DNA from: a virus
Direction: 5' to 3' (one strand)
Virus record (IMG/VR): IMGVR_UViG_3300012210_000006
Coordinates: 5,860 to 69,859 of that record
Length of the DNA: 64,000 bases
Shown here piece after piece: positions 752 through 32,177 of the stretch. Positions within the stretch are counted from its first letter, which is position 1. Every line of letters begins with the position of its first letter. Both the position numbers and the translations under genes were made by a program. A model generated the notes under the pieces. That model did no database searches. It saw only the letters and a program-made list of their open reading frames with translations, and was not told the origin of the DNA.

Positions 752-753
752 AT

Positions 754-1574: not shown

Positions 1575-1577
1575 TTT

Positions 1578-2021: not shown

Positions 2022-2025
2022 TTGA

Positions 2026-2035
2026 CTATCTTATA
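2026..2035 (+). promoter_or_regulatory. CTATCTTATA motif, putative late promoter element upstream of terminase
   Basis: Identical 10-mer at 14314 and 31101, each intergenic upstream of a late module. Confidence 0.4.
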
Positions 2036-2057
2036 ATCTGCCAGGGGATATTATTTA

Positions 2058-2726
2058 ATGGCGAAGACTCAATATAAGTTGGCAAAAACTCTCTCACTCC
2101 AAGCAAGACTCAAGCAGGTAATGCGTCTTCACCTTGGAGGTCTTTCTCATTACGCCATAGCGAGAACAATGGAATATAGTATCGAACAGGCAAAAAAGGA
2201 TGTTGCCACGATTTCACATGCGACAAAAGAATGGGAAGACGTTGGGGAACATTTAAAGGATACTGTTGCAAGAACTGGTGAGTTATTAAAATCTTTGAAA
2301 TTTCAACAGGACTTGCTTCAAAAACAACTAGATTATGCGAACGAATGGGTTGTTCAATTGGATCAAATGGGTTCTCCTTTACACGAGAGATTAGATAATG
2401 GGGAATTAGGTCCAGTTTTATATGGTCCTCGTGACTCTCGTCTTTCTTTAGCTTTATCATCAAAAATTACCGACTTAACAGAACAACAAGGAAAACTTCT
2501 TGGTGTGTATGCAAAAACGATGGACGTTACGGTTCGCTTAGAAGAATCAGAACAAACAACAATGCTTGTTCTTCAGGCGATTCAAGAGTGTGCTCCTGAG
2601 TTACAATCGAAGATTGTTCGCAAACTGAAAGCATTAAAGGCTTCTGAGGACACTTTTTCTAATATTGAAGTAGAAACAATCGAAGGTGAGTATGAAAATT
2701 TTGAAGGACGTAAATTAAATGCCTAG
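2058..2726 (+). CDS. Probable terminase small subunit
   Basis: N-terminal HTH-like segment (LSHYAIARTMEYSIEQAKKDV), helical body, overlaps the TerL start. Confidence 0.7.
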   Translation: MAKTQYKLAKTLSLQARLKQVMRLHLGGLSHYAIARTMEYSIEQAKKDVATISHATKEWEDVGEHLKDTVARTGELLKSLKFQQDLLQKQLDYANEWVVQLDQMGSPLHERLDNGELGPVLYGPRDSRLSLALSSKITDLTEQQGKLLGVYAKTMDVTVRLEESEQTTMLVLQAIQECAPELQSKIVRKLKALKASEDTFSNIEVETIEGEYENFEGRKLNA

Positions 2727-5631: not shown

Positions 5632-5632
5632 A

Positions 5633-7246
5633 ATGCCTTCTAAATTAAACAATAATGTTAAACAAGAAAGAAAAAAGTTTAATTTTGAGGTCCTGAAAAG
5701 TAGTCAGGATTCTTTTCAACGTGATATTTCTGCTTTTATGGAGAATATAACAAAAAGAAGATTTTTTGAATTATCAGAACAAATTAAGAATTCCACTGTT
5801 GCACAGAAAAAGGGAGTAGGCAAGAATTTAAAATTGCGTCTTCCTATTTCGACTATTGCTGGATTTGGTAATCAATCAGAACAAACATTAATGTCTGCGT
5901 TCGGATGGTACTGGGAACCTCTTTTGCATGATCTTGCTTTTTTTGACGAAATGCGAGCAGCAGTTTCCCTTATGTCTGGTCAGGTAAATAAATTAGTCGA
6001 TACTGCTCTTTGTGGATTTCGCATTGCAAATGACGATCCAGATGTGTTACGAGATTTAAATGAATTACTGATGTATAATCAGAATGTAAATTTGAAAGAG
6101 TCTATTCGTAATGCAATGGTTGATCTTTTCTCCCTCGGTAATTGTTATAAAAAACCAGAATGGACGAAAATTAAAGACGGGAGAACAACCCTAGAGGTTA
6201 TTCGTCCTATTCGTTCAAATGCTATTCGTAAACTTAGGAATGACCATTTAGCGACAGAGGGATATGTTCAATTATTGCATCGTCCCTCTGAGTTTATTCT
6301 TGGTGGAACGCCGCATACACCTACAATTTACCTATATGACGAAGTATTATGTGGAATACAGCGGTCATTTGGATGGTATGCATACGGCGAACCTCTTGGT
6401 GCATCATTGCCTTTCGCAATAAGGCTTAAATTACAAATGGAACGTGATCTTGCAGAAATGCTTCATCAACATTTGCCAAGAATTGTCGTGACGTTTTCGC
6501 CCGATGAACAAATGAATCAAGAACAAGTTGATAAGTCTAGGGATGATTTAAAAACACAAATTTCACAAATGCGACCAACAGATAACTTTGTGACAACTCC
6601 CGATGTTGTTGTTTCTTACGCTGGTCCACAAGGACATGCATTAGACTTCTCTTCTACACAAAAACATATTGAAGAGCAATTATTTTATGTTCTTCCTTTT
6701 GCTCCGGCGATTATGGGGCTTGATTCTAAAGGAAACCCTTATGATTCTCAACAACATTGGACTGTTGCTTGTTATACCGCCTATGATCTTCGGCATGAAA
6801 TAGACGTAATGTTCCGACCTATGTTTCGTATCATAGAAGAAGACTGGGGATGTGGTCCAATTACTCTTGCTTACGACGATCTTGATCCCGAGATGACTGC
6901 GAAACATGCTGAGACTGATGAATATGTTGCGAATAATGCGGTATTAAAACGAGATAATGGATTTATCGACCAAGATACTGCTGCACAACAGGCAACCGCT
7001 CATCATCCAGACGGTCCTGTTAAAAAAGCTGCAAAACCAGGAGCAATTCCTCCTCCGGTCGATAATACAGGAGTAAAAGACGGAGGAGCACCGGGAGGTT
7101 CTGGTTCTAAGGTAAGAACAAAAGGTCCTAAAAAGGATGGAACGAAGGTTCCCGATAAGGATAATCGCCCAAGAGGGAAAAGACATTCCCGGCAACAATT
7201 TGCGATTACGGAATGGGCGCTTGCACAATTAGAAGAAGAGGATTAA
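5633..7246 (+). CDS. Portal protein
   Basis: Follows TerL; about 537 aa; AGGAG RBS before ATG 5633; helical pattern and AYGEPLG motif; disordered basic C-tail. Confidence 0.85.
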   Translation: MPSKLNNNVKQERKKFNFEVLKSSQDSFQRDISAFMENITKRRFFELSEQIKNSTVAQKKGVGKNLKLRLPISTIAGFGNQSEQTLMSAFGWYWEPLLHDLAFFDEMRAAVSLMSGQVNKLVDTALCGFRIANDDPDVLRDLNELLMYNQNVNLKESIRNAMVDLFSLGNCYKKPEWTKIKDGRTTLEVIRPIRSNAIRKLRNDHLATEGYVQLLHRPSEFILGGTPHTPTIYLYDEVLCGIQRSFGWYAYGEPLGASLPFAIRLKLQMERDLAEMLHQHLPRIVVTFSPDEQMNQEQVDKSRDDLKTQISQMRPTDNFVTTPDVVVSYAGPQGHALDFSSTQKHIEEQLFYVLPFAPAIMGLDSKGNPYDSQQHWTVACYTAYDLRHEIDVMFRPMFRIIEEDWGCGPITLAYDDLDPEMTAKHAETDEYVANNAVLKRDNGFIDQDTAAQQATAHHPDGPVKKAAKPGAIPPPVDNTGVKDGGAPGGSGSKVRTKGPKKDGTKVPDKDNRPRGKRHSRQQFAITEWALAQLEEED

Positions 7247-7397: not shown

Positions 7398-9154
7398 TGC
7401 CTGATATTCAGACGAAATTACAAGAAACAATTAAATCGCTACAAGAATCTGGTGATTTAATTGGTTCTACTATTTTGGCTGAAGAATCTGCTTCAGGACA
7501 GAAAATTCCGTCTTCTCATCTTAATAAGATTCGGAAATGGATAAGAGAAGATATAGACGTAGAAAGAATTCATACTTTTCCTGTTATTATGATTGATACC
7601 GCTCCTACGAGGAATTTAGTCATATATACAGCAAAAACACAAAAGAAATCTTTAAATGGATGGTTTGGAAGAACGGTTCTGTTTAATTCAACTGGGGTTG
7701 GGAATGTAGGTTTGTTAGGACAGGCAGATCATTCTCTTCAAGCTTCTTCTCAAGTAGCGCGCATATATGATGCAAAGATGGTTAAAACTCCCGATGGTGA
7801 AATTGGGACTCTTGGATGGATATTTGCAGTTGAAGGCGTTGACCCTGTTATAGATTCTTTTATTAATAAATTAAATGCTGGTGTTTTACGAGAAGTTTCT
7901 ATCCATGTTGCGGTTGCTGAAGGAATTTTTTGTTCTATAGATGAAAAACAATTTGCATCATGGAGTGATGATAAAACTGAAGAAAATGAAAAAATTATAT
8001 GTTTCGATCATCAACCTGGGAATAAATATGGAAAACAAATTTGTTATATGTCGACCGGGGACCATAGAGTTGAACCCTTAGAACTATCGGTTGTTGCTTG
8101 TCCTGGTTCGATAAATGCTAGAGTATTAAAACCTGATGAAGTTGAAGATTATACAATGACCTCTCTTAGTGAGGCATTAGGTGGTTCAAAAGAAGTGAAG
8201 GAGAATATCATGGCTAAGAAAAACGAATCATCTGATCCCGCATTGAAGACAATATTTGAATTGGCAAAAGAAGCTGGTCTTTTAATTTCTGAAAAGAAAG
8301 ACGATAAGAAAGAGTCTAAATGTGGAGAGTGTGGTCATCAATCACATGAAGGTTCTTGTTCTGCTAATTGCAATTCTTGTAAGGAATCAAAGAAAAAGGA
8401 TGAAAAATACGATAAAGAGTCTTTGAACTCCGAGAAAAAGGATAATGTCGTTGATGACGGTGACGACGATGATAAGAAGAAAAAGAAAGAAGAGGAAGAA
8501 GCTAATCCAGATCAAAAGAAACCGGGTACGAAATCTAAGGATTCTAAAGAGGAAGAAGAGTCTAATCCTGACCAAAAGAAACCTGGGACAAAATCAAAAG
8601 ATTCCAAGGATAAAGATAAAGACGACGAAGAAGAGAAGAAGGCTGATCCACCGGAAGGCGATGATGATACAAAAGAATCATTTTTGTTTATAGAAGGTGA
8701 TTGTCCTGCCTGCGGGCGTTCCGAGGCTTCATCTAACACAGATGAAGAGGCCGTGAAGAATTTGCGCGCTAAAATGACCGAACAGGTTCAATTGATTATT
8801 ACGGAAGCGAAAAAGAGAATTAAGGCGAATTCGGAAAAAGCGGCTCAATACGATGCTATTTTCTCCCTGTTCGTAGAGGAAACTGCATCGCTTGCTGTCG
8901 AGACGGGATTAAAGAAGTTTCAGGAACGTGACAATTATATTGAAACCTTAAAATCTCTGTCTTTTAATGCAGTACAGGAAATTCGTCTTAGTCTTTCTGC
9001 AAAACAGAAACCTTCTCGTGAAAATAAGGTTGAAGAATTGCACCAATCAATGTTGGAAAGAGCGAAACAAAATCTTGGAACAGTGATTGAAGAGAAAGAT
9101 GGCAAGAAGAAATCTGTAAGCGGCTTAACTTCTCGCCCTAAGTTCGCAGTATAA
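7397..9154 (+). CDS. Prohead protease-scaffold fusion
   Basis: N-terminal REVSI...HQPG..Y...ELSVVACPG protease-type motifs; charged, coiled-coil C-terminal half; between portal and capsid genes. Confidence 0.8.
   Translation: MPDIQTKLQETIKSLQESGDLIGSTILAEESASGQKIPSSHLNKIRKWIREDIDVERIHTFPVIMIDTAPTRNLVIYTAKTQKKSLNGWFGRTVLFNSTGVGNVGLLGQADHSLQASSQVARIYDAKMVKTPDGEIGTLGWIFAVEGVDPVIDSFINKLNAGVLREVSIHVAVAEGIFCSIDEKQFASWSDDKTEENEKIICFDHQPGNKYGKQICYMSTGDHRVEPLELSVVACPGSINARVLKPDEVEDYTMTSLSEALGGSKEVKENIMAKKNESSDPALKTIFELAKEAGLLISEKKDDKKESKCGECGHQSHEGSCSANCNSCKESKKKDEKYDKESLNSEKKDNVVDDGDDDDKKKKKEEEEANPDQKKPGTKSKDSKEEEESNPDQKKPGTKSKDSKDKDKDDEEEKKADPPEGDDDTKESFLFIEGDCPACGRSEASSNTDEEAVKNLRAKMTEQVQLIITEAKKRIKANSEKAAQYDAIFSLFVEETASLAVETGLKKFQERDNYIETLKSLSFNAVQEIRLSLSAKQKPSRENKVEELHQSMLERAKQNLGTVIEEKDGKKKSVSGLTSRPKFAV
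8210..9154 (+). CDS. Putative nested in-frame scaffolding protein
   Basis: AAGGAG 6 nt before an in-frame ATG at 8210, at the domain boundary. Confidence 0.55.
   Translation: MAKKNESSDPALKTIFELAKEAGLLISEKKDDKKESKCGECGHQSHEGSCSANCNSCKESKKKDEKYDKESLNSEKKDNVVDDGDDDDKKKKKEEEEANPDQKKPGTKSKDSKEEEESNPDQKKPGTKSKDSKDKDKDDEEEKKADPPEGDDDTKESFLFIEGDCPACGRSEASSNTDEEAVKNLRAKMTEQVQLIITEAKKRIKANSEKAAQYDAIFSLFVEETASLAVETGLKKFQERDNYIETLKSLSFNAVQEIRLSLSAKQKPSRENKVEELHQSMLERAKQNLGTVIEEKDGKKKSVSGLTSRPKFAV
8489..8608 (+). repeat. Tandem 60-bp (20-aa) duplication EEEE[A/S]NPDQKKPGTKSKDSK
   Basis: 19/20 aa identical; 12 synonymous differences. Confidence 0.9.
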
Positions 9155-9767: not shown

Positions 9768-10880
9768 ATGTCAGTTTTGAAAAAAATAAATCTTCAAGAA
9801 GCCGTTACGAAATTGGTTTCGGAGATTGGCGAGCGCATCCCTCTGAAAGCTTTTGATAAAGTCAAGAAAACTTCAGTTGCTGCACAATGCCGTGAAGCTG
9901 GCATCTCTCTTGGAGAACTTGCGGAGTCTCTTGGGTATGATGGTGCTGCTTCATTTTTGAAACAGCAAATGGGAGTGGATGTTAAAACGCTTCGTTTAGA
10001 AGAACTTTGGACTTCTGACGAATTGCACGGTATGCAACCGGAATTGTTCTTGGATACAATTTTGATGGCAAACCTGAATGCAATGGTTATGCATAATGTT
10101 GTCACGGAGATTCCGATTGAGCGTGGCGAGATTGTGATTCGTACGTTTGAAGATGCTGGTCAGGTTTATGAACTTGGTCAAGGACAAACGATTCCTGACG
10201 ATCAGGGTATTATCATCCGTCGTACGCATTATGTGAAGAAAATTGGTCGTGGTCTTAATTGGTCTTATGAAGAGCAACGCCGTACGCAATTTCCTTTGAT
10301 TCAGTTGAATCTTATGCGCGTTGGTCTTCGCATGGCTCTTAAAAAAGACTTGGACATTCTTAATGTGCTTCGTACGGGTATCCCTGCACAGTTGGCAAAT
10401 GGTCAACAGCCTGCCCAGGCGGCTATTGCGACTCCGACTTCGATTTCACAATCGAATACGGTTGGTTCCGGTGTGCCTGCTGGACAGTTGGTTTTTGCCG
10501 ATGTTGTGCAAATTGTTACGGACATTGCGAATCGTAATTACCATGGTGATTTCGCGGTTATGTCGCCAGTCACATATGGTAAGTTCGCTCTTATTCCCCA
10601 GGTTTCTAATTACCTGAATGCCGGTCCAATGGCATCAAAAGTTCTTGAAACTGGCGTGATTTCACATTTCTTTGGTCTTGACTTGTTTATTACGAAGCAG
10701 ATGCCCGATAATGAAATTCTTGCTGGTCAAAAGGGATTCGCAGGAGTATTGTTTGTCGAACAACCGCTTCTTCTTGAAGAAGAAAAGATCATTTCGAAAC
10801 AGATTGAGCGTTGTCAGGTTACGGAATGTTATGTTCCGGCTGTGTTGTATACACAAGCTTTGACGAAAATGGACTTCTAA
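9768..10880 (+). CDS. Major capsid protein (HK97 fold)
   Basis: 370 aa, strong RBS, high-expression codon usage (CGT, GGT), KKIGRGLNWSYE and LFITKQMPD motifs. Confidence 0.9.
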   Translation: MSVLKKINLQEAVTKLVSEIGERIPLKAFDKVKKTSVAAQCREAGISLGELAESLGYDGAASFLKQQMGVDVKTLRLEELWTSDELHGMQPELFLDTILMANLNAMVMHNVVTEIPIERGEIVIRTFEDAGQVYELGQGQTIPDDQGIIIRRTHYVKKIGRGLNWSYEEQRRTQFPLIQLNLMRVGLRMALKKDLDILNVLRTGIPAQLANGQQPAQAAIATPTSISQSNTVGSGVPAGQLVFADVVQIVTDIANRNYHGDFAVMSPVTYGKFALIPQVSNYLNAGPMASKVLETGVISHFFGLDLFITKQMPDNEILAGQKGFAGVLFVEQPLLLEEEKIISKQIERCQVTECYVPAVLYTQALTKMDF

Positions 10881-13708: not shown

Positions 13709-14296
13709 ATGTCTTTATCTTCAGAAGAAAAACGTAATCTTGATACCCTTGGTGTGACGCATATCTCTATTGAGAATGGCGGATTTTATCAAGGTATTAC
13801 CCCAGGTGGTTTCCCCGATGTGCAAACGCATATTAAGGTTCCAGGACCAAAGGTGGAATTTGTTGATGCTTTTAGTCGAGAGATCAAAGCATTTAAAGAA
13901 ATTCCTGAGCCCGTTCAATTTCCTCATTTTAAAATTGTTCTTGAGAAAAATGAACGGTCTGGGTTGTTGGAAGAAATTGAACGGGATTTTAATGCGATGG
14001 ATATTGACCCTATCCACCTTGGATTGCTTTTTGCTCTCCAGACTGGCGTCATTCGTTATGTTCCAGAATATGAAATGCAAGAGAAATATCCTGATACGTG
14101 GGCAAAACGCTCTTTGAAACTTGTTTGGCGCAATGCGTCGGATAAGCCGGAAAAAACGAATCGTCAATTGTTGGATGAAGCGGAACAATCCGACTCGTAC
14201 TTAAGGAACTCTAAGGAAGTTTCTACTCATGTAAAAGCGGTTCAAACTGCTCTTGCAGAGGGAAAGGTTCCTCCGAAGCCTCTTGCGTTTAAGTAG
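13709..14296 (+). CDS. Hypothetical head-module protein
   Basis: GAGGAG RBS; 195 aa; high-expression codons. Confidence 0.75.
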   Translation: MSLSSEEKRNLDTLGVTHISIENGGFYQGITPGGFPDVQTHIKVPGPKVEFVDAFSREIKAFKEIPEPVQFPHFKIVLEKNERSGLLEEIERDFNAMDIDPIHLGLLFALQTGVIRYVPEYEMQEKYPDTWAKRSLKLVWRNASDKPEKTNRQLLDEAEQSDSYLRNSKEVSTHVKAVQTALAEGKVPPKPLAFK

Positions 14297-14306
14297 GGTA
14301 AATAGC

Positions 14307-14341
14307 AAAAGCCCTATCTTATACATAGGGCTTTTCTTTTT
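14307..14341 (+). terminator. Rho-independent terminator after head operon
   Basis: AAAAGCCCTAT-cttatac-ATAGGGCTTTT followed by T-rich tail. Confidence 0.85.
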
Positions 14342-14359
14342 AGAAAGGAGTGCATTGAT

Positions 14360-15088
14360 ATGATTACACTTACTACAGATCAATTGCGTTCCGTTCTCCA
14401 GTTACCGGAGCGCCCTTATTCCGATCCTCGTTTTTATGACGGATCATTATATTATGAACTTGAGCGTTTTGAAGTTGCAAGAATATTATCTGTAAGCGGA
14501 ACTGCTTCTGGTTCTGCTTATTTGTTTCGGCCTAATGTTGATTATCATCTTAATTATGATTCAATTGATTTTACGGGATCACTTGTTCCTCCAGATTTGA
14601 ATTCGATGTTCATTACGCAATATACATATTCGCGTCTTGGTAGTTCTCTTGCTTCAACTGCTTGTGCGAATGCTGTAATGATTACGACACAAGACTTAGG
14701 TCCATTATATCCGTATGCTTCGCATACTTCAAGTAATATTTCAACTGATCAACTTGCAACTTTTATTGCATCATTTCGTGCTGCCGCTGAAGCATGTAAG
14801 GGAATATCTTCTTCTGAAATTGAATTGGCACAGAAACTTAGAAGAGGAGCGGTATTATTCGATGACTCGAAGAAAACATCTGATTGGTTAGATCAGTCAA
14901 TGAAGTGGGAAACCGAATATAAGAAATATTTAACTATGGTAAGACCGAGCGGAATGGTGAGAGGTTTTTCTCTTGCTCGTCCTGTGGTAGAAAACTTAGT
15001 CATGGGTGAAGCAGGAAGAGCATGTTTCGATGGATTGTTCAATGGTTCCCTTCCCTTAACTGGTTCTCCGTGGGGCGGGATTTTCTAA
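14360..15088 (+). CDS. Putative head-tail adaptor
   Basis: Position between head and tail genes; AAGGAG RBS. Confidence 0.55.
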   Translation: MITLTTDQLRSVLQLPERPYSDPRFYDGSLYYELERFEVARILSVSGTASGSAYLFRPNVDYHLNYDSIDFTGSLVPPDLNSMFITQYTYSRLGSSLASTACANAVMITTQDLGPLYPYASHTSSNISTDQLATFIASFRAAAEACKGISSSEIELAQKLRRGAVLFDDSKKTSDWLDQSMKWETEYKKYLTMVRPSGMVRGFSLARPVVENLVMGEAGRACFDGLFNGSLPLTGSPWGGIF

Positions 15089-15663
15089 TGTCAATAAATA
15101 GGTCCAGTCTAGCGCAAAGGGAATTTTCCCAAATATTAATGAAGACTGCTCCTCAGAAGTTATTACTTATTCACGCACTTCCATTGAATTGTACTGGCGG
15201 GAATTGCTTTCAAAATGGGAGAGGATCAATCTCTGCATTATGCTCTATATGTGATGGCACAGGATATTTGACTGGATCACAATCGGGAGGTGCGGCACAA
15301 AAACCCCCCTTTTCACAAGCACCATATGCAACATCTGTGTTTATTTATGGTGATCTTCAGCAGGGACATGGATTATACGGCGCAGGCGGAGATTTCCTCA
15401 AATTGATTGCTGATCTCGGTAAACAAGATGTTGGGGATGGAACTTTATTTTGTAAGATGTGGGATTTTAATCAATTAACTGGAGAAATAGTTTATCCTGT
15501 GGTCGATGCGACATTACCGCGACCAGATATCATTGTAAGTGTTTATGGTCAACCATATAATATAATTAGGGAAATGATAGCAGAAGTGGGTAATGAGCAA
15601 ATTGCTCGTATTTTTTCAGTAGAAAAAGGTAGTTTTTCATCAATGTCTAATGGTGGTCGATAA
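15088..15663 (+). CDS. Putative head closure protein with Zn-finger
   Basis: CTGGNC...CSICDGTG motif typical of neck proteins; TAATG coupling. Confidence 0.55.
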   Translation: MSINRSSLAQREFSQILMKTAPQKLLLIHALPLNCTGGNCFQNGRGSISALCSICDGTGYLTGSQSGGAAQKPPFSQAPYATSVFIYGDLQQGHGLYGAGGDFLKLIADLGKQDVGDGTLFCKMWDFNQLTGEIVYPVVDATLPRPDIIVSVYGQPYNIIREMIAEVGNEQIARIFSVEKGSFSSMSNGGR

Positions 15664-16166
15664 TGTTTCAGGTTAAGTGCGATATTCCAGAAGATTTAGA
15701 ATCTAAGTTTGCAATTGCATTATCTTCTGAAATGTTGACAATTCGTACTATTGCTATTGCTCAGGAGGCCGGTGTAACGCTTTTGAACCATGCTGTACAG
15801 GCATGCATTGATAGTGTTTACGGTGCTAGTTCTGGAACAACAGACTCAGAACATGAATATGAACGTACTCTTGCATTATTAGATTCTCATATTGTGCAAG
15901 ATAATGGACTAGAACAATTTGTTTGTGTTGACCCCGATTCCGAAGCGATTGATCCTCATAGCGGAAGAGAATCGGTATTAGATTATGCCATTCCTGTGCA
16001 TGAAGGATATGAGCAATGGTTTATGGGGAATAATACAGGAGAATTTCATCCTGGTAAATTCTGGTTTGATACAACACTTGCGGAAGCTTCTCCTGTTATT
16101 TTTCAGTATATTTCTCTTGCATATGAAACAATCGTTATGGAACTGTTATCGGAGGTCTTTGGATAA
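15663..16166 (+). CDS. Putative tail completion protein (HK97 gp10-like)
   Basis: YA..VHEGY...PGKFWFD motif; neck synteny. Confidence 0.5.
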   Translation: MFQVKCDIPEDLESKFAIALSSEMLTIRTIAIAQEAGVTLLNHAVQACIDSVYGASSGTTDSEHEYERTLALLDSHIVQDNGLEQFVCVDPDSEAIDPHSGRESVLDYAIPVHEGYEQWFMGNNTGEFHPGKFWFDTTLAEASPVIFQYISLAYETIVMELLSEVFG

Positions 16167-16168
16167 AT

Positions 16169-16669
16169 ATGTATCCCGCCGGAGAAAGTTATTCAACTCT
16201 GATGTCTGTTGCATTTCTTAATGCTCTCCAAGATACTAATATGGTTCAACCTACGGGAGTCGCATCAACGGCGTTATTCCCCTCTGATCGTTTTAATATA
16301 ATTCTTGGGAATGACGCTGCGGTTGTTGGTTCTAAGGATAAAATAAAATTACCCTTAAATTTACCAACGGCATATATTGCGATAGGAAGACCATACGGAA
16401 CAGAACACGGATACTGCGGTGCAGAAAGTTTCGTTGATGTGCGAGCATATATTCCTTTTTCGGTATACGCAATGACGGCAGCAACACAAGACGATACCGA
16501 ACAGCGCCTTTTATTCTCTAGGCAACATCGGCAAAACGTATATTCCTCACATGGTTTAAATATTTGTGTAGCGAATACAACAGTCCGTGGTCGCCCAAGA
16601 ATGCCTTCTCCGATTACTGGATTAATGATTGTGGATTATCAATGGAATTTTTGGTATAGCCGTACTTAA
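16169..16669 (+). CDS. Putative tail terminator
   Basis: 166 aa directly upstream of the tail tube gene. Confidence 0.5.
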   Translation: MYPAGESYSTLMSVAFLNALQDTNMVQPTGVASTALFPSDRFNIILGNDAAVVGSKDKIKLPLNLPTAYIAIGRPYGTEHGYCGAESFVDVRAYIPFSVYAMTAATQDDTEQRLLFSRQHRQNVYSSHGLNICVANTTVRGRPRMPSPITGLMIVDYQWNFWYSRT

Positions 16670-16685
16670 TTTCAGGATTGTGACA
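16666..16685 (+). repeat. 20-bp exact repeat TTAATTTCAGGATTGTGACA, copy 2
   Basis: Identical to 7243-7262; upstream of the tail tube gene. Confidence 0.8.
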
Positions 16686-16770
16686 CCTATTTTTATTTGA
16701 GTATTTTCTATTTTTTAAAATGACATAGCGGATATTATTCTATCTTCAGGTTTTCTCTAGGAGAAATATC

Positions 16771-17490
16771 ATGGCGCAGAAGACTTTAACAGGTAGAAAT
16801 ATTCGTTGGTACTTCAATGGCGAACCTTTTGCTATGTCGCGCTTGACCATGTTGAAGCCTGATATTAATCAGGGTCTTGATAAGGTTTTGGAATGCGGTA
16901 ATCCGAATATTATCGAATATGCGAAGAAAGTTCCTGAAACTTCATTGTCTCTTGGTTTTACGATTATAAATAAGGCACAATTGGCTGTTGCCGTTGGTGA
17001 ATCTCTTTCGGTGACTGTAACAACGGGTGAAGTTCCCCCGTTGCCGGATAATATTGATATTGTTGAACGTCGGATACAACCTGGAACAGAAGGGACGACT
17101 TCTGAAGTTGTGCAAGGGTATTCAATTTATCAGGCAGTTATGATTGAGAAACAGGCGTTTGACCAGGAAGTTGATAAACTTCTTGCTGAAACGGTTTCTG
17201 CGAAATGTCGGGCTCCGCGTGACTTTGAAGGAATCAATGGGATCGCCTTTCAAAATTTCACTGGTAATGGTTCTACGACTGCGTTCTTGCTTGCTTCGCA
17301 TTCAGCGTTCAATATGCTTTCAGATGGGACTATGGCGATTCGAGTTGAAGCACCGTTAGGGAATGTTCTTCGCTATGGATCGGCAAACGATTATGTCACG
17401 GCCAGTACGTCGAGTACGACAACGGTTACATTTAATGTTGCTCCTGCTTCGAGCACGACTCCGAACGTGTTAGTCGTGTACGCTTTCTAA
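16771..17490 (+). CDS. Major tail (tube) protein with Ser/Thr-rich C-terminal domain
   Basis: Strong RBS, high-expression codons, siphovirus synteny; FTGNGSTTAF...VLVVY accessory domain. Confidence 0.75.
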   Translation: MAQKTLTGRNIRWYFNGEPFAMSRLTMLKPDINQGLDKVLECGNPNIIEYAKKVPETSLSLGFTIINKAQLAVAVGESLSVTVTTGEVPPLPDNIDIVERRIQPGTEGTTSEVVQGYSIYQAVMIEKQAFDQEVDKLLAETVSAKCRAPRDFEGINGIAFQNFTGNGSTTAFLLASHSAFNMLSDGTMAIRVEAPLGNVLRYGSANDYVTASTSSTTTVTFNVAPASSTTPNVLVVYAF

Positions 17491-17544
17491 GATATAGAAT
17501 TTACAAGCGGTTTGAAACCGCACAAGATTGAGGAGATTATTTCG

Positions 17545-17625
17545 GTGAATACTTATATCCTAAAAGTTCCACAATTAAAACTCTTTGGTATTAAATTACC
17601 TGAGAGTTTTTCTTTGTTGCAATAG
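17545..17625 (+). CDS. 26-aa micro-ORF
   Basis: GAGGAG RBS, GTG start, MNTYILKVPQLKLFGIKLPESFSLLQ. Confidence 0.35.
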   Translation: MNTYILKVPQLKLFGIKLPESFSLLQ

Positions 17626-17638
17626 GAGATTATTTAAA

Positions 17639-18880
17639 ATGTTTAATAAAAAACATAAAATTCTTGCTTTGTCAGATTTTGGTGTGAGCGGAATTTCCGA
17701 GAGCGCGATTGGGCCGCTTAAACATTGGCACGAACAGGGTTATGAAATTTTTCATCTTGCTTTGGGATTTAACGGAATATCTGCTGGAGTAGATGAGCGT
17801 TTATATCCTTGGAGAAATCGCCTTATGCCGGTTAATCCCGGTTCCGAAGCTACCAAATTCGGGCAATTGCAAATTAAAAACGCACTTGAAATTTCTCAAG
17901 CAGATGTTCTTCTTACCACGTTCGACGTTTGGATGTGTGCGTATATCTCGCAACCAGAAAATGCTACAAATTTAGACGAAGCAACGCGCAAAGTTTTGTC
18001 ACATCAACATCGTAAGTTTCACCATATCATGTTGTATCCGATAGATGGTGCTCAACAAAATAAATACTTGCCATTGGGAATGGAAGAATCAATACTTGGG
18101 GCTGACACTCCAATTACATATTCTAAGTTTTCGCAAAACTTGATGAAAACGAATTTCAATATCGAAGTTCCATATATCCCAATAGCACATGATCCTAAAA
18201 TATTTAAACCGATGGATAAAAAAGAATGTCGTCGGCAGTTGTATTTAAAAGAAGACGGTTTTTATTGCGCGATGGTCGGAACGAATCAATACCGAAAGTT
18301 GTTTGGAGATTTCTTTGACGGAGCAGTTCCGTTTGCAAAAGCACATGATGACGTGTATTTGATTCCCTTTACGACCTGGGATATGCAGATTTTGGGAGGG
18401 ACGGATATAAAATCTCATGTGTATAAATCAGGAATTGGTGATCGCATTATTGATCCCTCTAATCTTGTTGGAAAACTTTCTGCCGAGGGCATGAGCATGT
18501 TTTACAATGCTATGGATGTTATAGTATTGTGTACCGTTGGAGAAGGAGCCGGGCTTCCTCCATTGCGCGCCCGCGCTTGCGGCGTACCTGCGTTGGTGTC
18601 AGGTAATACTTCCAATATTGAGTTTGCGGGGCATCAGTTTGAGCTTATCAAGAATCGCGGCAAATACTACGATAATTTCGGTTCCAATCTTGAGCGATAC
18701 CTTACTGATACTAACGATCTTCGCGAAAAACTAGAAACCTTATATAATAATCCCTCATTTCGACATGAGGTGGGACAAGCGGGACTCGCACATATGAAAC
18801 AATTCGAAGTTGATAATGTAATGCCTGCGTGGGATAAAATTCTTGATAATATTCCTGATCGAACCGAAGAGGTGGCGTAA
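17639..18880 (+). CDS. GT-B (GT4-like) glycosyltransferase
   Basis: MVGTNQYRK, MFYNAMDV, EGAGLPPLRARACGVP motif of Glycos_transf_1 type; AGGAG RBS before ATG 17639. Confidence 0.88.
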   Translation: MFNKKHKILALSDFGVSGISESAIGPLKHWHEQGYEIFHLALGFNGISAGVDERLYPWRNRLMPVNPGSEATKFGQLQIKNALEISQADVLLTTFDVWMCAYISQPENATNLDEATRKVLSHQHRKFHHIMLYPIDGAQQNKYLPLGMEESILGADTPITYSKFSQNLMKTNFNIEVPYIPIAHDPKIFKPMDKKECRRQLYLKEDGFYCAMVGTNQYRKLFGDFFDGAVPFAKAHDDVYLIPFTTWDMQILGGTDIKSHVYKSGIGDRIIDPSNLVGKLSAEGMSMFYNAMDVIVLCTVGEGAGLPPLRARACGVPALVSGNTSNIEFAGHQFELIKNRGKYYDNFGSNLERYLTDTNDLREKLETLYNNPSFRHEVGQAGLAHMKQFEVDNVMPAWDKILDNIPDRTEEVA

Positions 18881-19515
18881 TGCGATATATAATTATTTCG
18901 CCAAACCAAATTAACGATCCTCATGTGTATAAAATTGCACAACTTCGAAATGAGTTTATGCATAATGCTAGAGTGGTGAATGGCGATGAAGTCGAATCTA
19001 TGGAAATTATTGATTTTAGTATTTTCGATTATCAGTATGAGGATTTTTATAAAAACTTTAATGAAAAGAAAGAACTTGACGGCTCCTGGAAATCTATGTG
19101 CTTTCTTAATGAAGAAGTTTTACCTGATCTTAGAAAAACTTTGGTAAGTTTAATTCGGGATAAAGAAAAAGATATTATACATGTTGATCTTGGGAAATCA
19201 ATTCTGCCTTTATATCTTGCGTATTTCGCAATTCTCGAAGGTGTTGCCCTTAACGTAACATTTCATGTTCCTGATCCTACCGATGAGAAACCAAGTTTTA
19301 ATATTGGAGGAGATAGCGCATATTCAAATCCTCGGAATAATCTGCGTCGTTATCTCGCAACACAGATTATGAAAAATGCAATGACTGTTTTTATTGATGA
19401 TCCCCGCATTGTTCAAATTCTTAATCATTTGTTCCCTCGTGTAAATCGCGAGATTCATCTTGATCCTCTTGTTCGTATAGAAAAAGAAGAGAGCGAGTTA
19501 CAAAATGTTAAATGA
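18880..19515 (+). CDS. Hypothetical protein resembling a GT-B N-terminal Rossmann domain
   Basis: MRYIIIS...DIIHVD...VTFH...A.TVF pattern; coupled to the GT gene. Confidence 0.5.
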   Translation: MRYIIISPNQINDPHVYKIAQLRNEFMHNARVVNGDEVESMEIIDFSIFDYQYEDFYKNFNEKKELDGSWKSMCFLNEEVLPDLRKTLVSLIRDKEKDIIHVDLGKSILPLYLAYFAILEGVALNVTFHVPDPTDEKPSFNIGGDSAYSNPRNNLRRYLATQIMKNAMTVFIDDPRIVQILNHLFPRVNREIHLDPLVRIEKEESELQNVK

Positions 19516-19732
19516 TCGCGAAAAACTCAAGGACTTTGTTACCTCTACAATCGAGCAGAGATTTGGTGTTATTGCCGATAGCATTAGAAATTTTATTGAA
19601 AAGAAAGAAATTTCTGGAGTTGTCGGAGAGATACTTCAAAAGTTCGCGAGAACCCAAGGGAATTACGCGATACGGACGATCCATCAACATCTGGACTGCA
19701 ATGATGTTACTCATAAAAATAAAGGAGATTAG
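19505..19732 (+). CDS. Hypothetical protein
   Basis: Fills the gap with overlapping start. Confidence 0.5.
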   Translation: MLNDREKLKDFVTSTIEQRFGVIADSIRNFIEKKEISGVVGEILQKFARTQGNYAIRTIHQHLDCNDVTHKNKGD

Positions 19733-19734
19733 TC

Positions 19735-20196
19735 ATGTCAGTTATACGCATTCCCCGTAAAATTAAAACCTTTGAGTATGAAGGTGCTAAGTTTGGTCTT
19801 CGTCGTCTTCGTGTTGGAGAAATGGCGGAACTAACCCGTCTTACTTCGCTGTATCTTGCTTCAACGAGAAAAGAATTGAAGCAAGTTGTTGAAGATAAGA
19901 TTACTGAATTTGCTGTTGTTCAAGGTGATCTTGGACTCATGCACGATGCACAGGTGTATTTGGCAAAGACGGCGGTCATTGATGTTACATCTCAATTGCC
20001 GATTTTCTCTGGAGATGAAAAGATTGAAGACATTGATAACGATTTTATTAATGTTGTTTGGAATACCTACAATACTACCGATGAAGTAAAATCATCTGTG
20101 CCGGATGATAAGAAAGAAGAACCTGCCCGCCCTTTGGACCTAAAAACGACCCCGTTAACGACGACATTAAGCTCCGCAGAAACATCCTCAGTATAG
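19735..20196 (+). CDS. Tail assembly chaperone (gpG-like)
   Basis: AAGGAG RBS; upstream of TMP; slippery heptamer near the 3' end. Confidence 0.8.
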   Translation: MSVIRIPRKIKTFEYEGAKFGLRRLRVGEMAELTRLTSLYLASTRKELKQVVEDKITEFAVVQGDLGLMHDAQVYLAKTAVIDVTSQLPIFSGDEKIEDIDNDFINVVWNTYNTTDEVKSSVPDDKKEEPARPLDLKTTPLTTTLSSAETSSV

Positions 20197-20426
20197 CAGA
20201 GTATTTCCATATAAACCCCTTAGACGTTTGTAAATGGGAATATTGCTATTTTCTTGAAGTAGTAGAGGATGTAAATCGTTTCGTCGAGGAGAAGAATGCT
20301 CGGCAAAATGACAAGGTTCCTGAGCCGGAAAGAAACGAAGACGGAACATACTTTAATACTGAGTTTCAAGAAGCACATGAAATGTCAGCGGAAGAAATGC
20401 TCGCCGAATTAAAGGGAGATTTCTAA
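20130..20426 (+). CDS. -1 frameshift extension of the tail chaperone (gpGT-like)
   Basis: C CCT TTG (X XXY YYZ) at 20130-20136; the -1 frame is open for 98 codons to the TAA adjacent to the TMP start. Confidence 0.85.
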   Translation, partial: PFGPKNDPVNDDIKLRRNILSIAEYFHINPLDVCKWEYCYFLEVVEDVNRFVEEKNARQNDKVPEPERNEDGTYFNTEFQEAHEMSAEEMLAELKGDF

Positions 20427-23400
20427 GTGTTTGAGCGGAGTATTGGAATACGATTAACTTTGTTGCCTGCCTTTGCAGAAGCGACAAAGTTAATCTTGTC
20501 TGATATTGGGGAAATTAATAAGGGTCTTCAAAGCATCAATGAAAATGGCAGTAAAATTAATGTAGATGGCTTGAAGGTTCTTAATACTGAATTGAGTAGT
20601 TTGGTTGGCGGAGCAAATGCAGCGGCAAAAGCAATAACAGAGCTTAACGGAATTAAAATAACAAAAAATACCTTATCTGCAATGCAAATAGGCTTACAAG
20701 AAGTAAGTGTTTCGGCAAAACAAACGCAAAAAGATATTGCGGGACTTGGCGATCAAACTGCACAAACAGCAAAAGTTATCGAAGAGGAAGTCGGAGCAGC
20801 GGCTAAATCATTTTCAATTTTAGGTCAACAAATATTAAATGCTGAGAGAGCATTAGCCAAACTTGGCTTGTTTGCAATGCCGAATATGAATACGTCGATA
20901 ATCGGTATGCATAATATTGTTTCTGAAATAATGCTTGCGGAATCTGCAATGCGTCGCTTAGATTCGTTTGCTCCGCGACAACTTGAGGATACGGTTCTTC
21001 GTCTGAATTCAGGGCTCCAAAATTTACGGATGTTGGCAAGTAGTCAACAGCCCCTTATGCTCGGTCCTGGGCCTGCTTGGGCTACAGGCAACGCGGCATA
21101 TAATAATGCGCGCACAATGTCTCTTGGGGCAGGCGCGGCACCAGAACAGGCTCCTTGGACTTCAGTTAGAGGTAATTCTCCCTATATGCTCGGTCCTGGG
21201 CAATGGAGCGGAAATAATATAACGCCATATGCTCTAAATCAAGGAATTAATCCACAGTCAACCCCATATGAGCCAGGTAACCGTGGACAAGTTTATGAGG
21301 GTCCTGGTGCGATTACACCATATGTTCAAGATTTGGGACGCGGACAATGGCAGTCTCGTAATATACCAGGTTCTCCGAATTATGGACCGATGATCCCGGC
21401 GAATTATGGTAGTGAAGGCACAATGAATGCTGGTCGTGGGATTATGCGACATGGCGATGTAATGCAATCTGCTGGTTGGTCAGGAGCAATGAATGCAATT
21501 ATTCTTGAAAGTGTTTTAAGTCCGCTTGTTAAGTCACAAATGGATATTCAGGATTTATATGGTGTTGCCGGAGAAGCATTGCAGGCAGTAGGGGCAAGAC
21601 CTAAGAATTATCAAAATATTATGTCTGGAGCAGAAGAGGCCTCTACGAAATATGGTGGTTCACTTCGCGAAAATGTTTCAGGGATGTACACTTTTGCATC
21701 TTCTGTTCCTACTCTTTCTAAGATTAATTGGAATGACCCACAACAAGCGGAATTAATGAAAAAATCATATGAGAAAATAACCGAAGGAAGTATTATTGCT
21801 GGTCGCTCAACACATCCTGTTTCACAGGAACATTCTATATTAGATATTTTAGCATCTGTTACTAATCTTGGCATGCCTATGAAGAACGCTAAAGAACTTG
21901 GAAATTCGATTAACGTCTTAACTGATGTTTTTACAAATATTAAGAATTCAACTTCTACGGACTTTGATTTACTTGGGACAACTGTTAGAAATGTTGGAGC
22001 AGTTGCCCACAATATGGGAGTATCTTGGCAAGACACGATGGCCCTTACGGGATTACTTGCTGAAGGTAAATATCGTGGTTCGATTGCTGGTACATCTTTA
22101 AAACGTATTTTTTCTCGTCAGGCAATGGACCCTAAGCAGGCTGCAAAAATGGAGGAACTTGTCGCTTCATTTGGTGGCAATGTTTCTATGTATGATAAAC
22201 AAGGGGCAGCGTTATCTCCCTTGGGTTTCTTCGCAAATATTGCCAAATTTGAAGATCAACATTTGCGTGGACCTAATGGAGCAAAAGCAAGGTCAAAATT
22301 AGAAGGTTCTCTCTCTGGTTTATATGCTGGTGCTCCTATGGGAGAGCTAGTTAATCTTGCTCGTGGTTTTGGAGGGAGTGAAGGTCTTAAAAAATATGAA
22401 AAAGATTTAGTTGGCGGGGCTCCTGGTGCAACTGATAGAGCATATCAAACACGAGATATGAATGGTCAAAATATTAAAATCGAAGGACAGAAGGTTGATA
22501 ATTCTTGGCAATTAGAAATGCACAAGACGTTTGTAATGATGCAACCTGACCTTGTAAATGCATTGCATGGAATTCAAAAACTTATTGGTATATGGCATGG
22601 TATGTCTGATCCGGTGAAGAAATTTATTTTAGATGCTGCTGCACTTGCATTGGGATTATCGGCGATCACCGGCATTAGTGGTATTCTTATTGGGAATTTC
22701 TTAAAGATGGGAGGAACATTAATATTCCTGAGTGGTAATGCCTTGAAACTTGTAGAACATTTTAGCGGATTTGTTTCCATTATCCCTCGCATGATTGCTG
22801 GTGCAAGCGGACTTGTTGTTGCAATGGGACCTATTGGTTGGACAATTTCCGCAGTAATTCTTGCAGTTGGAGCATTAGCTATTGCCTGGTCGAAAGATTG
22901 GGGTGGTATACGTGAAAAAACTGCTGAGGCAACTTCTGGAATTACTACTGAGTTTCATAATATTATGAATGGATTATCAAATCTTGCTCAATCGGGAATG
23001 ACCTATGCAAAACAATTTGGAGATGGAGTTGTTCATGGTTTTCAGGATGTCGCGTCACGAGTTAAAAGTGCATTAAATCCAATTGGTAATCTTTTTCCAC
23101 ATTCAGAACCGAAGGATTCATCTTCTCCTCTTGCTGGAATGGGACATTCTGGACAAGCATACAGCGATCAATTTATTGAAGCAGCAATTATGGGGTTTGG
23201 AAGTGGGGCAAAGAAAGTTAAGAAAGCTGCAAAACCTATTGGAGATGTTTTCATTGAATTAAAATCTGAAAGTGTGCAACATGTTCAAGAAATGGCAAAA
23301 CAAATCGAACAGGAATTAATTAAGGCTGGTACGATTGTAAAAAATCGTTGGATTGATCTGTATAATCCTAAAACCGGACAAATTACAAGAGTACATGGAG

Positions 23401-25628: not shown

Positions 25629-26600
25629 ATGGCAATCACGCTTACTCCGCAATGGTTGATTGATAATGTGGCATTACCTCGTAATCCGAATTCCTTTAAA
25701 TATACTTTTGATAAGGTAAATGCGACATATGAAAAACAAGCAGATGGTCGTCAAATTCGTATATCTGCTCCTAAATTGCAAACAGCTATCGACATTGTTT
25801 TAACATGGAAATATGCGCCACGTCGTATTATCCGCTCAATTTTACAATACTGTAATCGGACAACTATTGAATTCGATCAACCTCATATTATCACAATTAC
25901 AGGAATTCAACCTCCTCTTATTATTAAGGGATGGTTTGATACGCCGGAAATAACAATGTCTCAGGAAAATGTAACATCTAGAGTTGGAGAGGGAGGTACA
26001 TTTCAAGATTTACAATTAACACTACGATCAGATGCATTTGGTTTTCAGTCTGCTAATTTTATTCCAACAGGTTCATCGGCGATATATGCTACAATTGCTT
26101 CTAATTTTGGTGGAATAATTGGCAATTCCTTAGATTATTTACCTGCTTCACAATGGGATGGTGTTTCATATTGGCAGCAACCTTTTGCTTCTTCTACTAA
26201 TATGACAATTTGGAATCTTGGAGATCAACAATGGTATCCAATGATTCAAATAAATGGCCCATTTACGAGTTTTACATTAATTCAAAACAGTATTAAATTA
26301 TCATATGCGGCGCAACTGGTTCAATTTCTTTGGACAGGAGGCGCAGTTGCATCTGGAAATGCAGTTATTTATGATATGATGCAGAATCGTTGTTATCTTG
26401 TGACCGCTTCTGGAACAGTCAATACTGAAGTATATACGTATGCACTCCAAACAACTGGAGATAATTTACCATTTGGTTATTATCCCGGTTTAGTTGTTGG
26501 AAGCAATTCTTTTTCTATTTTAGCAACAGGTTCTTTTACTGCTGCAACAAATATAGATTTTTCCCATAATGGAGCAGAACGCTTTAGGTATTGGGGATAA
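25629..26600 (+). CDS. Distal tail protein (Dit-like)
   Basis: Directly after TMP; WNLGDQQWYPMIQINGP pattern. Confidence 0.65.
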   Translation: MAITLTPQWLIDNVALPRNPNSFKYTFDKVNATYEKQADGRQIRISAPKLQTAIDIVLTWKYAPRRIIRSILQYCNRTTIEFDQPHIITITGIQPPLIIKGWFDTPEITMSQENVTSRVGEGGTFQDLQLTLRSDAFGFQSANFIPTGSSAIYATIASNFGGIIGNSLDYLPASQWDGVSYWQQPFASSTNMTIWNLGDQQWYPMIQINGPFTSFTLIQNSIKLSYAAQLVQFLWTGGAVASGNAVIYDMMQNRCYLVTASGTVNTEVYTYALQTTGDNLPFGYYPGLVVGSNSFSILATGSFTAATNIDFSHNGAERFRYWG

Positions 26601-31125: not shown

Positions 31126-31554
31126 ATGAGTGATTTTATTGCGAATCATTTACAAGGTCTTGCTGCTGCTATTTCCGCTGGAATAGCTCTCGCTGGAGTT
31201 ATTCTTGCCTCTCCGCATCTTAAGAAGATATTAAATATATTTAAATCGAAAAATGATTTAAATAGTGCATATTATGCATTATTAAAACAGTTTACTGAAG
31301 ATCGTGAAGCCTGGCGCGAAACAATGGTTTCCTGGAAGGGAACAGCAACAGCCCTACGATCAGAGATGGTTGTTCTGAAGGAACGTCTTGGTCGATTAGA
31401 GGCAGAACTTGAGCGATTAATTCCTAAATACAGATCGGCGTTAAAATTTATTCTCGAATTGAAAAGTCATATTGTTGAAAAAGATATGCCTAAGACTCCA
31501 GAATTAATTGAACATGATTTGGATCAAATTTATCAGGAGATACAACCTCAATGA
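31126..31554 (+). CDS. Putative holin
   Basis: One N-terminal TM segment plus coiled coil; overlaps the endolysin start. Confidence 0.5.
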   Translation: MSDFIANHLQGLAAAISAGIALAGVILASPHLKKILNIFKSKNDLNSAYYALLKQFTEDREAWRETMVSWKGTATALRSEMVVLKERLGRLEAELERLIPKYRSALKFILELKSHIVEKDMPKTPELIEHDLDQIYQEIQPQ

Positions 31555-32177
31555 ATATTTTAGATGTTTCATATTCACAAAAAAATATAGATTATAAAGC
31601 AGTAAAAGAAAGTGGTGAAGTAGAAGCTGTTTGTATCAGAGCTTCTCAAGGGCACACCATTTCGGATGAAATGTTTAAAATTCACCATGACGGATTTAAA
31701 TCTGTTGGTATACCTATTGGTGCATATCACTTTTTTATGTTTGATTCTTCCCCTGCACAACAAGCACAATTCTTTTTAGAGCAAATCGCCGGTCGAGAAG
31801 GTGAACTGTTACCAATGGTTGACTGTGAGGGGGATAGCCTGTTAAACGATCCGCACAGTTCCATTGGTGATCGTATGCAATGGTTACACACTTTCAATGC
31901 ATATTTGTTAGATCATTTCCCTGCTCCGTGTCATAATTTACTTCTATATACTCCTCTTGATTTTTGGAATACGAAAATGAATGGGACCTCTGCCTTTCAA
32001 GGTCATTTTTTATGGTTAGCTGAATACAACAATGATTCTCGTCCAGAATTACCAAAAGGTTTTGTTGATTGGAAGCTTTGGCAACATACGAGTAAAGGGG
32101 CAGTAACTGGAATTGATTCCCCGGTTGATCTTTCTTATTTTAATGGATTTTCTCTTGAGGAGATTACAAGAAAATGA
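31551..32177 (+). CDS. Endolysin, GH25 muramidase
   Basis: LDVS, IGAYHF, catalytic DCE, LWLAEY, WQHTS, VDLS. Confidence 0.92.
   Translation: MNILDVSYSQKNIDYKAVKESGEVEAVCIRASQGHTISDEMFKIHHDGFKSVGIPIGAYHFFMFDSSPAQQAQFFLEQIAGREGELLPMVDCEGDSLLNDPHSSIGDRMQWLHTFNAYLLDHFPAPCHNLLLYTPLDFWNTKMNGTSAFQGHFLWLAEYNNDSRPELPKGFVDWKLWQHTSKGAVTGIDSPVDLSYFNGFSLEEITRK

Follow-up and report, generated by a model that had tools for sequence, protein, structure and literature searches.

The subject of this analysis is a window of 64,000 nucleotides (positions 5,860 to 69,859 of IMG/VR record IMGVR_UViG_3300012210_000006), the whole stretch of viral DNA that was studied; its source is a single virus record of 70,111 bp that is rated 100% complete. 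On the plus strand, between the gene of the tail tube protein and that of a candidate tail assembly chaperone, lie three genes (17639-19732), which we refer to as the cassette: a glycosyltransferase (GT) of the GT-B class; open reading frame 2 (ORF2), whose product resembles the N-terminal half of such an enzyme; and ORF3, which encodes a small conserved protein. ORF2 is joined to the GT gene by a TAATG overlap, ORF3 overlaps ORF2 by 11 nt, and the chaperone candidate follows after a further 2 nt. An earlier reading made from the letters alone (hereafter the sequence-only reading) had noticed the enzyme and its coupled partner, had taken them to be inserted between tail genes, and had proposed O-glycosylation of the tail in a phage that does not look mycobacterial. 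The low GC content of the window, ~37%, agrees with this last point.

The three-gene cassette

The GT gene starts with an ATG at 17639, preceded by AGGAG 10 nt upstream, and ends with TAA at 18880; the start site agrees with the N-termini of the orthologues. Profile searches matched the protein to the PHROG 2170 glycosyltransferase family (2e-21) and to the Pfam model Glycos_transf_1 (PF00534), the latter with 23.7 bits, slightly below the cut-off of 26.4. The homologues number 48 (clusters), and nearly all of the 47 orthologues carry precomputed PF00534 or PF13692 assignments. Over the C-terminal donor domain, the profile of the family matched the PDB entries 5i45, 6kih and 3oy2 (E 5e-8 to 1e-6). 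The PHROG match and the assignments of the orthologues thus uphold the earlier recognition of a GT-B enzyme at this place.

The conservation of individual residues was assessed in an alignment of 20 orthologues, in which the donor loop GEGAGLPPLRARACGVP is invariant, as is E302, the first glutamate of the EX7E motif. The R219/K220 pair is invariant as well, and K220 aligns with the lysine of the GRxxxxKG phosphate-binding motif (RKTKG in 5i45 and RRKG in 6kih), so that the basic residue of this motif is present in the GT. Further invariant polar residues are D96, H129, D136, D156, H184, N216, Q217, E335, D345 and R353. The second glutamate of EX7E in GT-B enzymes usually contacts the nucleotide ribose. 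In the GT, its place is taken by an invariant arginine, R310, which aligns with the glutamate of "EAMA" in both 5i45 and 6kih, and the GT therefore lacks an EX7E motif with both glutamates. Arginine is invariant at positions 310 and 312 (GT residues 301-320, window 18540-18600), where GT4 enzymes have Glu-Ala-Met. Judging from these residues, the GT appears to be active and to recognise its donor in an unusual manner. The two arginines may point to an unusual sugar donor, and one can speculate that R310 might fit an acidic group of that donor.

The coupled gene, ORF2, gave a weak match to Pfam Glyco_transf_4 (E 0.004). The AlphaFold2 (AF2) model of its product has a predicted local distance difference test score (pLDDT) of 85.8 and a predicted template modelling score (pTM) of 0.85, and an exhaustive VIA-align search with this model returned nearly exclusively enzymes of the GT-B fold (glycosyltransferases and UDP-GlcNAc 2-epimerases) among the top ~45 matches. 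The top structural matches had Z scores of 9-11.8 and root-mean-square deviations of 3.1-3.7 Å over 142-180 aligned residues, and the compact aligned ranges correspond to the N-terminal half of the matched enzymes (PglA 2-188, MurG 7-163 and WaaG 1-167). Foldseek against PDB gave weak rows (best E 1.8e-3), and the atlas neighbours of ORF2 belong to Glyco_transf_4 or DUF1972. The model and its structural matches thus confirm the view of the coupled ORF as a lone GT-B N-domain. ORF2 is presumably non-catalytic because the donor-binding half is absent. Between ORF2 and the N-domain of the GT itself, hhalign detected no sequence relation (probability 0.3%), and on this value the idea that ORF2 is a recent duplicate of that domain was rejected.

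Structure prediction points to a heterodimer of GT and ORF2. Modelled together, the two proteins gave an ipSAE of 0.87 in three runs, compared with 0.01 for the best of three controls; the contacts agreed in at least 88% between the runs, and the pLDDT of the partners was at least 82. The ipSAE mark of GT-ORF2 is reached by 58 of 80 solved complexes and by 2 of 110 mismatched pairs, counts that are approximate for this pair, since its input alignments were custom-built. On the GT side, the predicted interface comprises the N-domain (residues 104-176) and the C-terminal helix; on the ORF2 side, it comprises residues 77-85, 112-119, 151-165 and 183-189, including the invariant L81, P82, Y112 and P186. 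ORF3 is 38% identical to its counterpart in the relative L013, is also present in L001 and L016, and always lies 3' of ORF2; its weak matches are to Pfam DUF7437 (E 0.041) and to PHROG 17112, a family of unknown function (E 0.0069).

The position of these genes among assembly genes and the replacement of the second EX7E glutamate by arginine in 20/20 aligned members would also suit a GT-like protein that is catalytically dead and that, with ORF2 and ORF3, assists tail assembly (for example as a chaperone of the decoration domain of the tube) or is a minor structural component. The score of the window GT below the Pfam cut-off fits this explanation too, and the predicted GT-ORF2 complex could be structural. 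Nevertheless, the invariance of the donor loop, E302, R219/K220 and many polar residues is what one expects of a functional active site and not of one in decay, and we regard a purely non-catalytic role as improbable.

The order tube-GT-ORF2-ORF3-chaperone-tape measure protein is found in 7/7 clade members, across tube identities from 80% to 44% and GT identities from 65% to 44%, with ORF3 and the chaperone of L012 being matched by position and size only. The clade members are the window, L001/G001, L013, L016, L018/G006 and L012, which were compared by sequence, and a JGI contig of 71.7 kb, which was compared by gene sizes. Identities to the window for tube, GT and ORF2, in this order, are 80, 65 and 59% in the IMG/VR relative L001/G001; 63, 50 and 33% in the Logan contig L013; 44, 46 and 33% in L016; and 44, 44 and 25% in L012. 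In L018/G006, the tube and GT are 50% and 47% identical, and the ORF2 orthologue was recognised with an hhalign probability of 95%. Thus, the cassette belongs to the tail module by conserved synteny and is not a recent insertion: the location given by the sequence-only reading is correct, but the word "inserted" is misleading. As a separate observation, the GT of L016 is longer (467-aa acidic C-terminal tail), and its ORF2 has 272 aa.

A distant homologue of the GT lies directly after the capsid gene in the isolated cyanophage Mae-JY09 of Microcystis (PP395641, 7905-10626), followed by an ORF of 210 aa and a gene for an NAD-dependent sugar epimerase/dehydratase, all of them before the head-tail adaptor gene. 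This region is a candidate for another virion-glycosylation module. The 210-aa gene was considered as a homologue of ORF2 and rejected, as it showed neither similarity to it nor a Pfam match.

The sequence-only reading had also suggested that the glycan might be methyl-capped by an FkbM-family methyltransferase. The FkbM gene of the window is located 16 kb from the cassette, at the head of the packaging module. Profile and protein searches found no FkbM gene in G001, the closest complete relative (direct terminal repeats; GT 65% identical), while G006/L018 carries an orthologue of 45% identity in the head/neck region. In the open frame surrounding the latter gene, one in-frame TAG was flagged. 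The FkbM gene is thus a movable accessory of the late region, and its role as an obligatory partner of the cassette was rejected on co-occurrence. In the IMG/VR contigs L003 (4437-6981) and L004 (2670-6768), one or two FkbM genes lie within ~1.5 kb of a distant GT homologue, and in L003 the FkbM-GT pair is situated between the capsid gene and a tail-protein gene. Methylation of a glycan is therefore possible, but FkbM as a conserved partner of the cassette is not supported.

The tail tube and its conserved hairpin

The tube protein encoded upstream of the cassette matches no Pfam or PHROG model, and tblastn against 50,697 isolated phage genomes found nothing. Its homologues number 39 (clusters), and an exhaustive profile search placed the full-length ones in five 50%-identity clusters only. 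The tube and GT families are similar in size (39 and 48 clusters), and their members often come from contigs of equal length. An AF2 model built from 30 homologues (pLDDT 79) consists of an N-terminal tube fold (residues ~1-154) and a C-terminal beta-sandwich decoration domain (~155-239). Of the Foldseek matches in PDB with E <1e-3, the best has an E of 3e-6, and nearly all are tail tubes or resemble them (TM by target 0.5-0.75); on this model, the protein has the beta-sandwich fold of siphophage tail tubes.

The C-terminal domain contains a hairpin, ASTSSTTT (211-218), and a loop, APASSTT (224-230); in the model, TSST (213-216) forms the turn of the hairpin, and NVAPASSTTPN (222-232) forms the loop. 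Ser and Thr make up 52% of residues 206-230; among the 25-residue stretches of 86 ORFs in the genome, none has a higher value (99.9th percentile 44%). Residues 207-221 are the most conserved segment of the protein, with a value of 0.81 versus 0.69 for the N-terminal domain and 0.62 for the rest of the C-terminal domain, and such conservation is unusual in a decoration domain. In the L016 tube (8001-8945, 314 aa), the ASTSSTTT hairpin is the exact site of a Ser/Thr/Gly-rich insertion of ~75 residues, and L016 keeps the cassette; this indicates that the site is surface-exposed and tolerant of insertion.

The profile search also revealed 57 further proteins (P0106-P0162) that match only tube positions ~155-235, and several of those sampled are fibre-like, with Pfam DUF4183 or the T7 tail-fibre N-terminal domain (Phage_T7_tail). 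The C-terminal domain is thus a mobile beta-sandwich repeat of ~70 residues (GDGSTT.F.L ... YT.SG.TLTF.TAP.SG..I) that occurs singly or in tandem in many proteins; the copy in the tube itself matched no Pfam model. In the equivalent window of 21 repeats of this family (consensus ...YT.SG.TLTF.TAP.SG..I), the Ser/Thr fraction has a mean of 0.34 and a maximum of 0.48, versus 0.52 in the tube. Only the extended, near-invariant ASTSSTTT hairpin is clade-specific. The tube of the outgroup L015 (28% identity) lacks the hairpin motif, and neither the cassette nor any other GT gene adjoins its tube gene; a different glycosylation island of L015 lies between its head and neck genes (267-4968) and encodes a heptosyltransferase-like GT9 enzyme of 612 aa, a protein of the Methyltransf_11 family, and two further GTs, one GT2-like and one GT4. 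The outgroup pattern agrees with virion glycosylation.

Computational comparison established the gene identities (from fold and profile) and showed that both the synteny and the hairpin are conserved. The conserved position of the cassette, its translational coupling to tail genes and the conserved, exposed Ser/Thr hairpin make late-expressed, two-subunit O-glycosylation of the tail tube or of other virion proteins the best reading, which we hold with moderate confidence. Also in its favour are the mycobacteriophage precedent described below and the distant GT homologues of Mae-JY09 and L003, which lie in structural modules together with genes of sugar-modifying enzymes. According to this reading, the three genes would act as one unit within the tail operon, expressed late and devoted to protein glycosylation. 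Catalysis would fall to the 413-aa GT-B enzyme; ORF2, a non-catalytic acceptor-side (N-terminal) GT-B half, would bind the N-domain of the GT and, by analogy with the GtfA/GtfB pair discussed below, could recruit the acceptor or stabilise the complex; and ORF3 would be a small accessory protein. The complex would be made in the cytoplasm alongside the tail proteins and, with a sugar donor of the host, would attach O-linked glycans to serines and threonines of virion proteins before the tail is assembled or while this takes place. Foremost among the candidate targets is the ASTSSTTT hairpin of the tube C-terminal domain together with the neighbouring APASSTT loop, encoded directly upstream.

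Several points weigh against this interpretation. The Ser/Thr density of the tube C-terminus, which the sequence-only reading had taken as a sign of glycosylation, is indeed the highest in the genome, but the family consensus is itself Ser/Thr-rich; to judge from the repeats compared, the density is largely a fold signature of the domain family and alone is neither a glycosylation mark nor a sequon. The proposal of tail O-glycosylation thus keeps the support of position, coupling and the conserved hairpin and loses much of that from density. Genome scans call for the same caution, as Ser/Thr-rich ends of tail or fibre proteins can be a fold signature and not a glycosylation tag. The correlation between the hairpin motif and the cassette comes from one outgroup and is phylogenetically confounded, and L015 has another GT cassette elsewhere. 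The GT homologues of S-EIVl and L002 adjoin primase/helicase genes, not structural genes. Moreover, the arginine in place of the second EX7E glutamate makes donor binding atypical and activity not assured, and the mycobacteriophage enzymes described below are unrelated, of the GT-A class, so that their function is not transferable by homology. Finally, the phage is uncultured and known from genes alone, and from these we infer the virion glycan as well as catalytic activity, donor, acceptor and any benefit to the virion, be it shielding, stability or adhesion.

The main rival explanation is that GT/ORF2 modifies a host-envelope glycan or a lipid-linked precursor late in infection (lipopolysaccharide, teichoic acid, capsule or S-layer glycan), which could mask receptors and limit the loss of progeny on debris or infected cells, or exclude competing phages. 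GT4-type GT-B enzymes mostly act on envelope glycans; the orthologues are annotated as "glycosyltransferase involved in cell wall biosynthesis"; the structural neighbours of ORF2 include envelope and metabolite GTs (BshA, WbnH, PglA and MurG); and the distant homologues in S-EIVl and L002 are outside structural modules. Receptor-modifying GTs of phages are typically prophage morons expressed in lysogens. No tyrosine integrase (PF00589) was found in the genome studied and no relatives of the phage were found in 185,579 prokaryote genomes (GTDB contigs), which argues against lysogenic conversion, and this possibility was rejected. In addition, the cassette is fixed in the tail operon of 7/7 relatives and coupled to tail genes, and inspection of the GT and ORF2 sequences, with no dedicated predictor run, revealed no obvious membrane anchor. 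Thus, action on the host envelope appears rather unlikely, albeit less so than the non-catalytic role considered above.

Genome context

The features of the window are presented in Table 1. The minus-strand arm contains genes for ribonucleotide reductase (RNR), the DNA polymerase III alpha subunit (PolIII-alpha), PhoH, a primase-helicase, RecA and ThyX, and no tRNA genes were found in the window. The counterparts of the tape measure protein in L012 and L015 match PF10145 (PhageMin_Tail).

Table 1 Features of the window, with positions in window coordinates
Feature	Position	Strand	Basis or remark
FkbM-family methyltransferase	936-1574	+	PF05050 at 9e-22
Large terminase, 970 aa, split by LAGLIDADG intein	2719-5631	+	PF14528 3.5e-14; Intein_splicing 6e-8
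Portal	5540-7246	+	
Major capsid protein	9768-10880	+	Pfam and PHROG profile searches
Neck genes	13709-16669	+	Position alone
Tail tube protein, 239 aa	16771-17490	+	Predicted fold
Tube-GT intergenic region	17491-17638	+	Two AT-rich hairpins; AGGAG ribosome-binding site at 17624-17628
GT-B (GT4-like) glycosyltransferase, 413 aa	17639-18880	+	Profile matches
ORF2, 211 aa, stand-alone, like the N-terminal half of GT-B	18880-19515	+	AF2 model and VIA-align
ORF3, 75 aa, small conserved protein	19505-19732	+	Conserved in relatives
Tail assembly chaperone candidate	19735-20196 (G-like), -1 frameshift extension (GT-like) to 20426	+	
Tape measure protein, 1728 aa	20427-25613	+	Length and position
Dit-like gene	25629-26600	+	PHROG 33
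GH25 lysin	31551-32177	+	
ThyX-type thymidylate synthase homologue	56701-57591		34 bits; sole thymidylate-synthase-like gene of the genome

The gene that follows the cassette directly precedes the tape measure gene and has no Pfam or PHROG profile match. It contains a slippery heptamer of the XXXYYYZ type, C.CCT.TTG, at 20130-20136 in the correct phase, and its -1 frame is open from 20112 to 20426, i.e., up to the start of the tape measure gene. By its position and frameshift signal alone, it is a candidate tail assembly chaperone of the G/GT kind. In the tube-GT intergenic region, the second hairpin precedes a T-run, and the predicted RNA fold is mildly stable (z = -2.2). A scan of 16500-20600 for promoter and terminator consensus sequences returned sites no more numerous than in shuffled sequence; an attenuator role for the hairpins is a possibility.

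The gene content also bears on whether the GT could glycosylate the DNA of the phage and thereby evade restriction, as do the alpha- and beta-glucosyltransferases of T4. The latter share the GT-B fold, T4 alpha-glucosyltransferase (AGT, 1y6f) is among the structural neighbours of ORF2 (Z 8.6), and the closest homologue of the GT in an isolated phage, that of S-EIVl, adjoins a primase gene. However, no dCMP/dUMP hydroxymethylase of the ThyA family was found in the complete genome, which argues against glycosylation of hydroxymethylated bases; ThyX, RNR, PolIII-alpha, primase-helicase, RecA and PhoH are all that the replication arm offers; and no other DNA-hypermodification genes were present among the 20 replication-arm, lysis and tail ORFs scanned. 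Since the GT gene is, moreover, part of the tail operon and not of the DNA-metabolism arm, we consider DNA as its substrate very improbable, and glycosylation of virion proteins is still preferred.

Comparison with known glycosylation systems

To our knowledge, experiments have demonstrated virion glycosylation in mycobacteriophages only, where it affects antibody recognition, and it is the closest known kind of system to the cassette. Mycobacteriophage virion glycosylation was reportedly the subject of a study by Freeman et al. in 2023. As described in two reports (PMC12363180, PMC11600133), mycobacteriophages glycosylate capsid and tail-tube proteins with their own GTs (Che8 gp108-110, Corndog gp35-38 and Myrna). 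In Corndog, GT genes lie inside the virion structural module with a sugar-type O-methyltransferase alongside (PMC11600133). The cassette likewise lies in the structural module, at the tube-chaperone slot of 7/7 clade members.

The slots differ, as the Corndog GT genes are immediately upstream of the capsid maturation protease gene. The enzymes differ as well: Corndog gp37 (GT2-like, 230 aa) and gp38 (GT25-like, 206 aa) are short GT-A proteins accompanied by a methyltransferase of the TylF type, whereas the cassette encodes a 413-aa GT-B enzyme and an N-half partner. A tblastn comparison of the window proteins, including GT and ORF2, with the 15-45 kb region of Corndog gave no match at E <=1e-4, and the cassette GT is not homologous to the Che8 gp110/Corndog gp38 type. 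The linked sugar O-methyltransferase of the cluster O arrangement has no equivalent here, with the FkbM gene being 16 kb away, absent from G001 and located elsewhere in L018. The C-termini of the Corndog tube and capsid proteins, unlike that of the window tube, have no Ser/Thr-dense stretch. The host is clearly different in a phage at 37% GC, and glycans have been demonstrated in mycobacteriophages, whereas the phage of the window is known from its genes alone.

Among solved structures, a profile search placed 5i45, 6kih and B736L of chlorovirus NY-2A (3oy2), the last likewise encoded by a virus, nearest to the GT in sequence. The likeness of these three to the GT is generic to GT4 enzymes, and they keep an acidic residue where the GT has R310.

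The closest functional analogy to the GT-ORF2 pair is GtfA-GtfB, a cytoplasmic O-GlcNAc transferase of two proteins that primes the glycosylation of serine-rich repeat adhesins; its catalytic GT-B enzyme works beside a GT-B-like partner that is itself non-catalytic and contacts the Ser/Thr-rich acceptor (PMC6973325). GtfA (4pqg) and related GTs of serine-rich repeat proteins (3rhz and 6oyc) are among the structural neighbours of ORF2, with Z of 8.8-9.7. There is no sequence homology between the two pairs, and DUF1975, the GtfA/GtfB interaction domain, gave no match in GT or ORF2 at E up to 0.1. Furthermore, GtfB has a full GT-B fold, whereas ORF2 comprises the N-terminal half only, and the acceptor of GtfA/GtfB is a long disordered repeat, compared with the candidate acceptor here, a short hairpin on a folded beta-sandwich. 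A separate N-terminal half that binds its GT partner is also found in Alg13/Alg14, a split GT-B in which two halves make one enzyme. In contrast to Alg13/Alg14, the window GT is already equipped with an N-domain, to which ORF2 adds a second N-half.

If virion glycosylation by this cassette is confirmed, the trait would extend to an unrelated low-GC lineage of uncultured phages and to a different enzyme class. With three genes and a candidate acceptor that is defined as a short hairpin of a small folded domain, the system would be compact and open to experimental test. It would also introduce a new GT architecture, a full GT-B enzyme with a free N-half subunit, which could serve to engineer glycans onto phage particles. 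What sets the cassette apart is the predicted heterodimer of a GT-B enzyme and a free N-half, the arginine within EX7E, the constant location between tube and chaperone genes, and the candidate acceptor, a hairpin of a folded domain rather than a poly-Thr tail. We tentatively suggest, as a joint reading that is possible and still rather doubtful in its entirety, that these features describe a hitherto undescribed two-subunit protein O-glycosyltransferase, composed of a GT-B enzyme whose EX7E donor site carries an arginine in place of a glutamate and of a free N-half acceptor adaptor, which would place a glycan, possibly from an unusual (e.g., acidic) donor, on one conserved hairpin of a DUF4183-like domain on every tube subunit. 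Tail glycosylation would then be a core trait, encoded in the tail operon, of non-actinobacterial phages, and the enzyme would be a phage counterpart of GtfA/GtfB.

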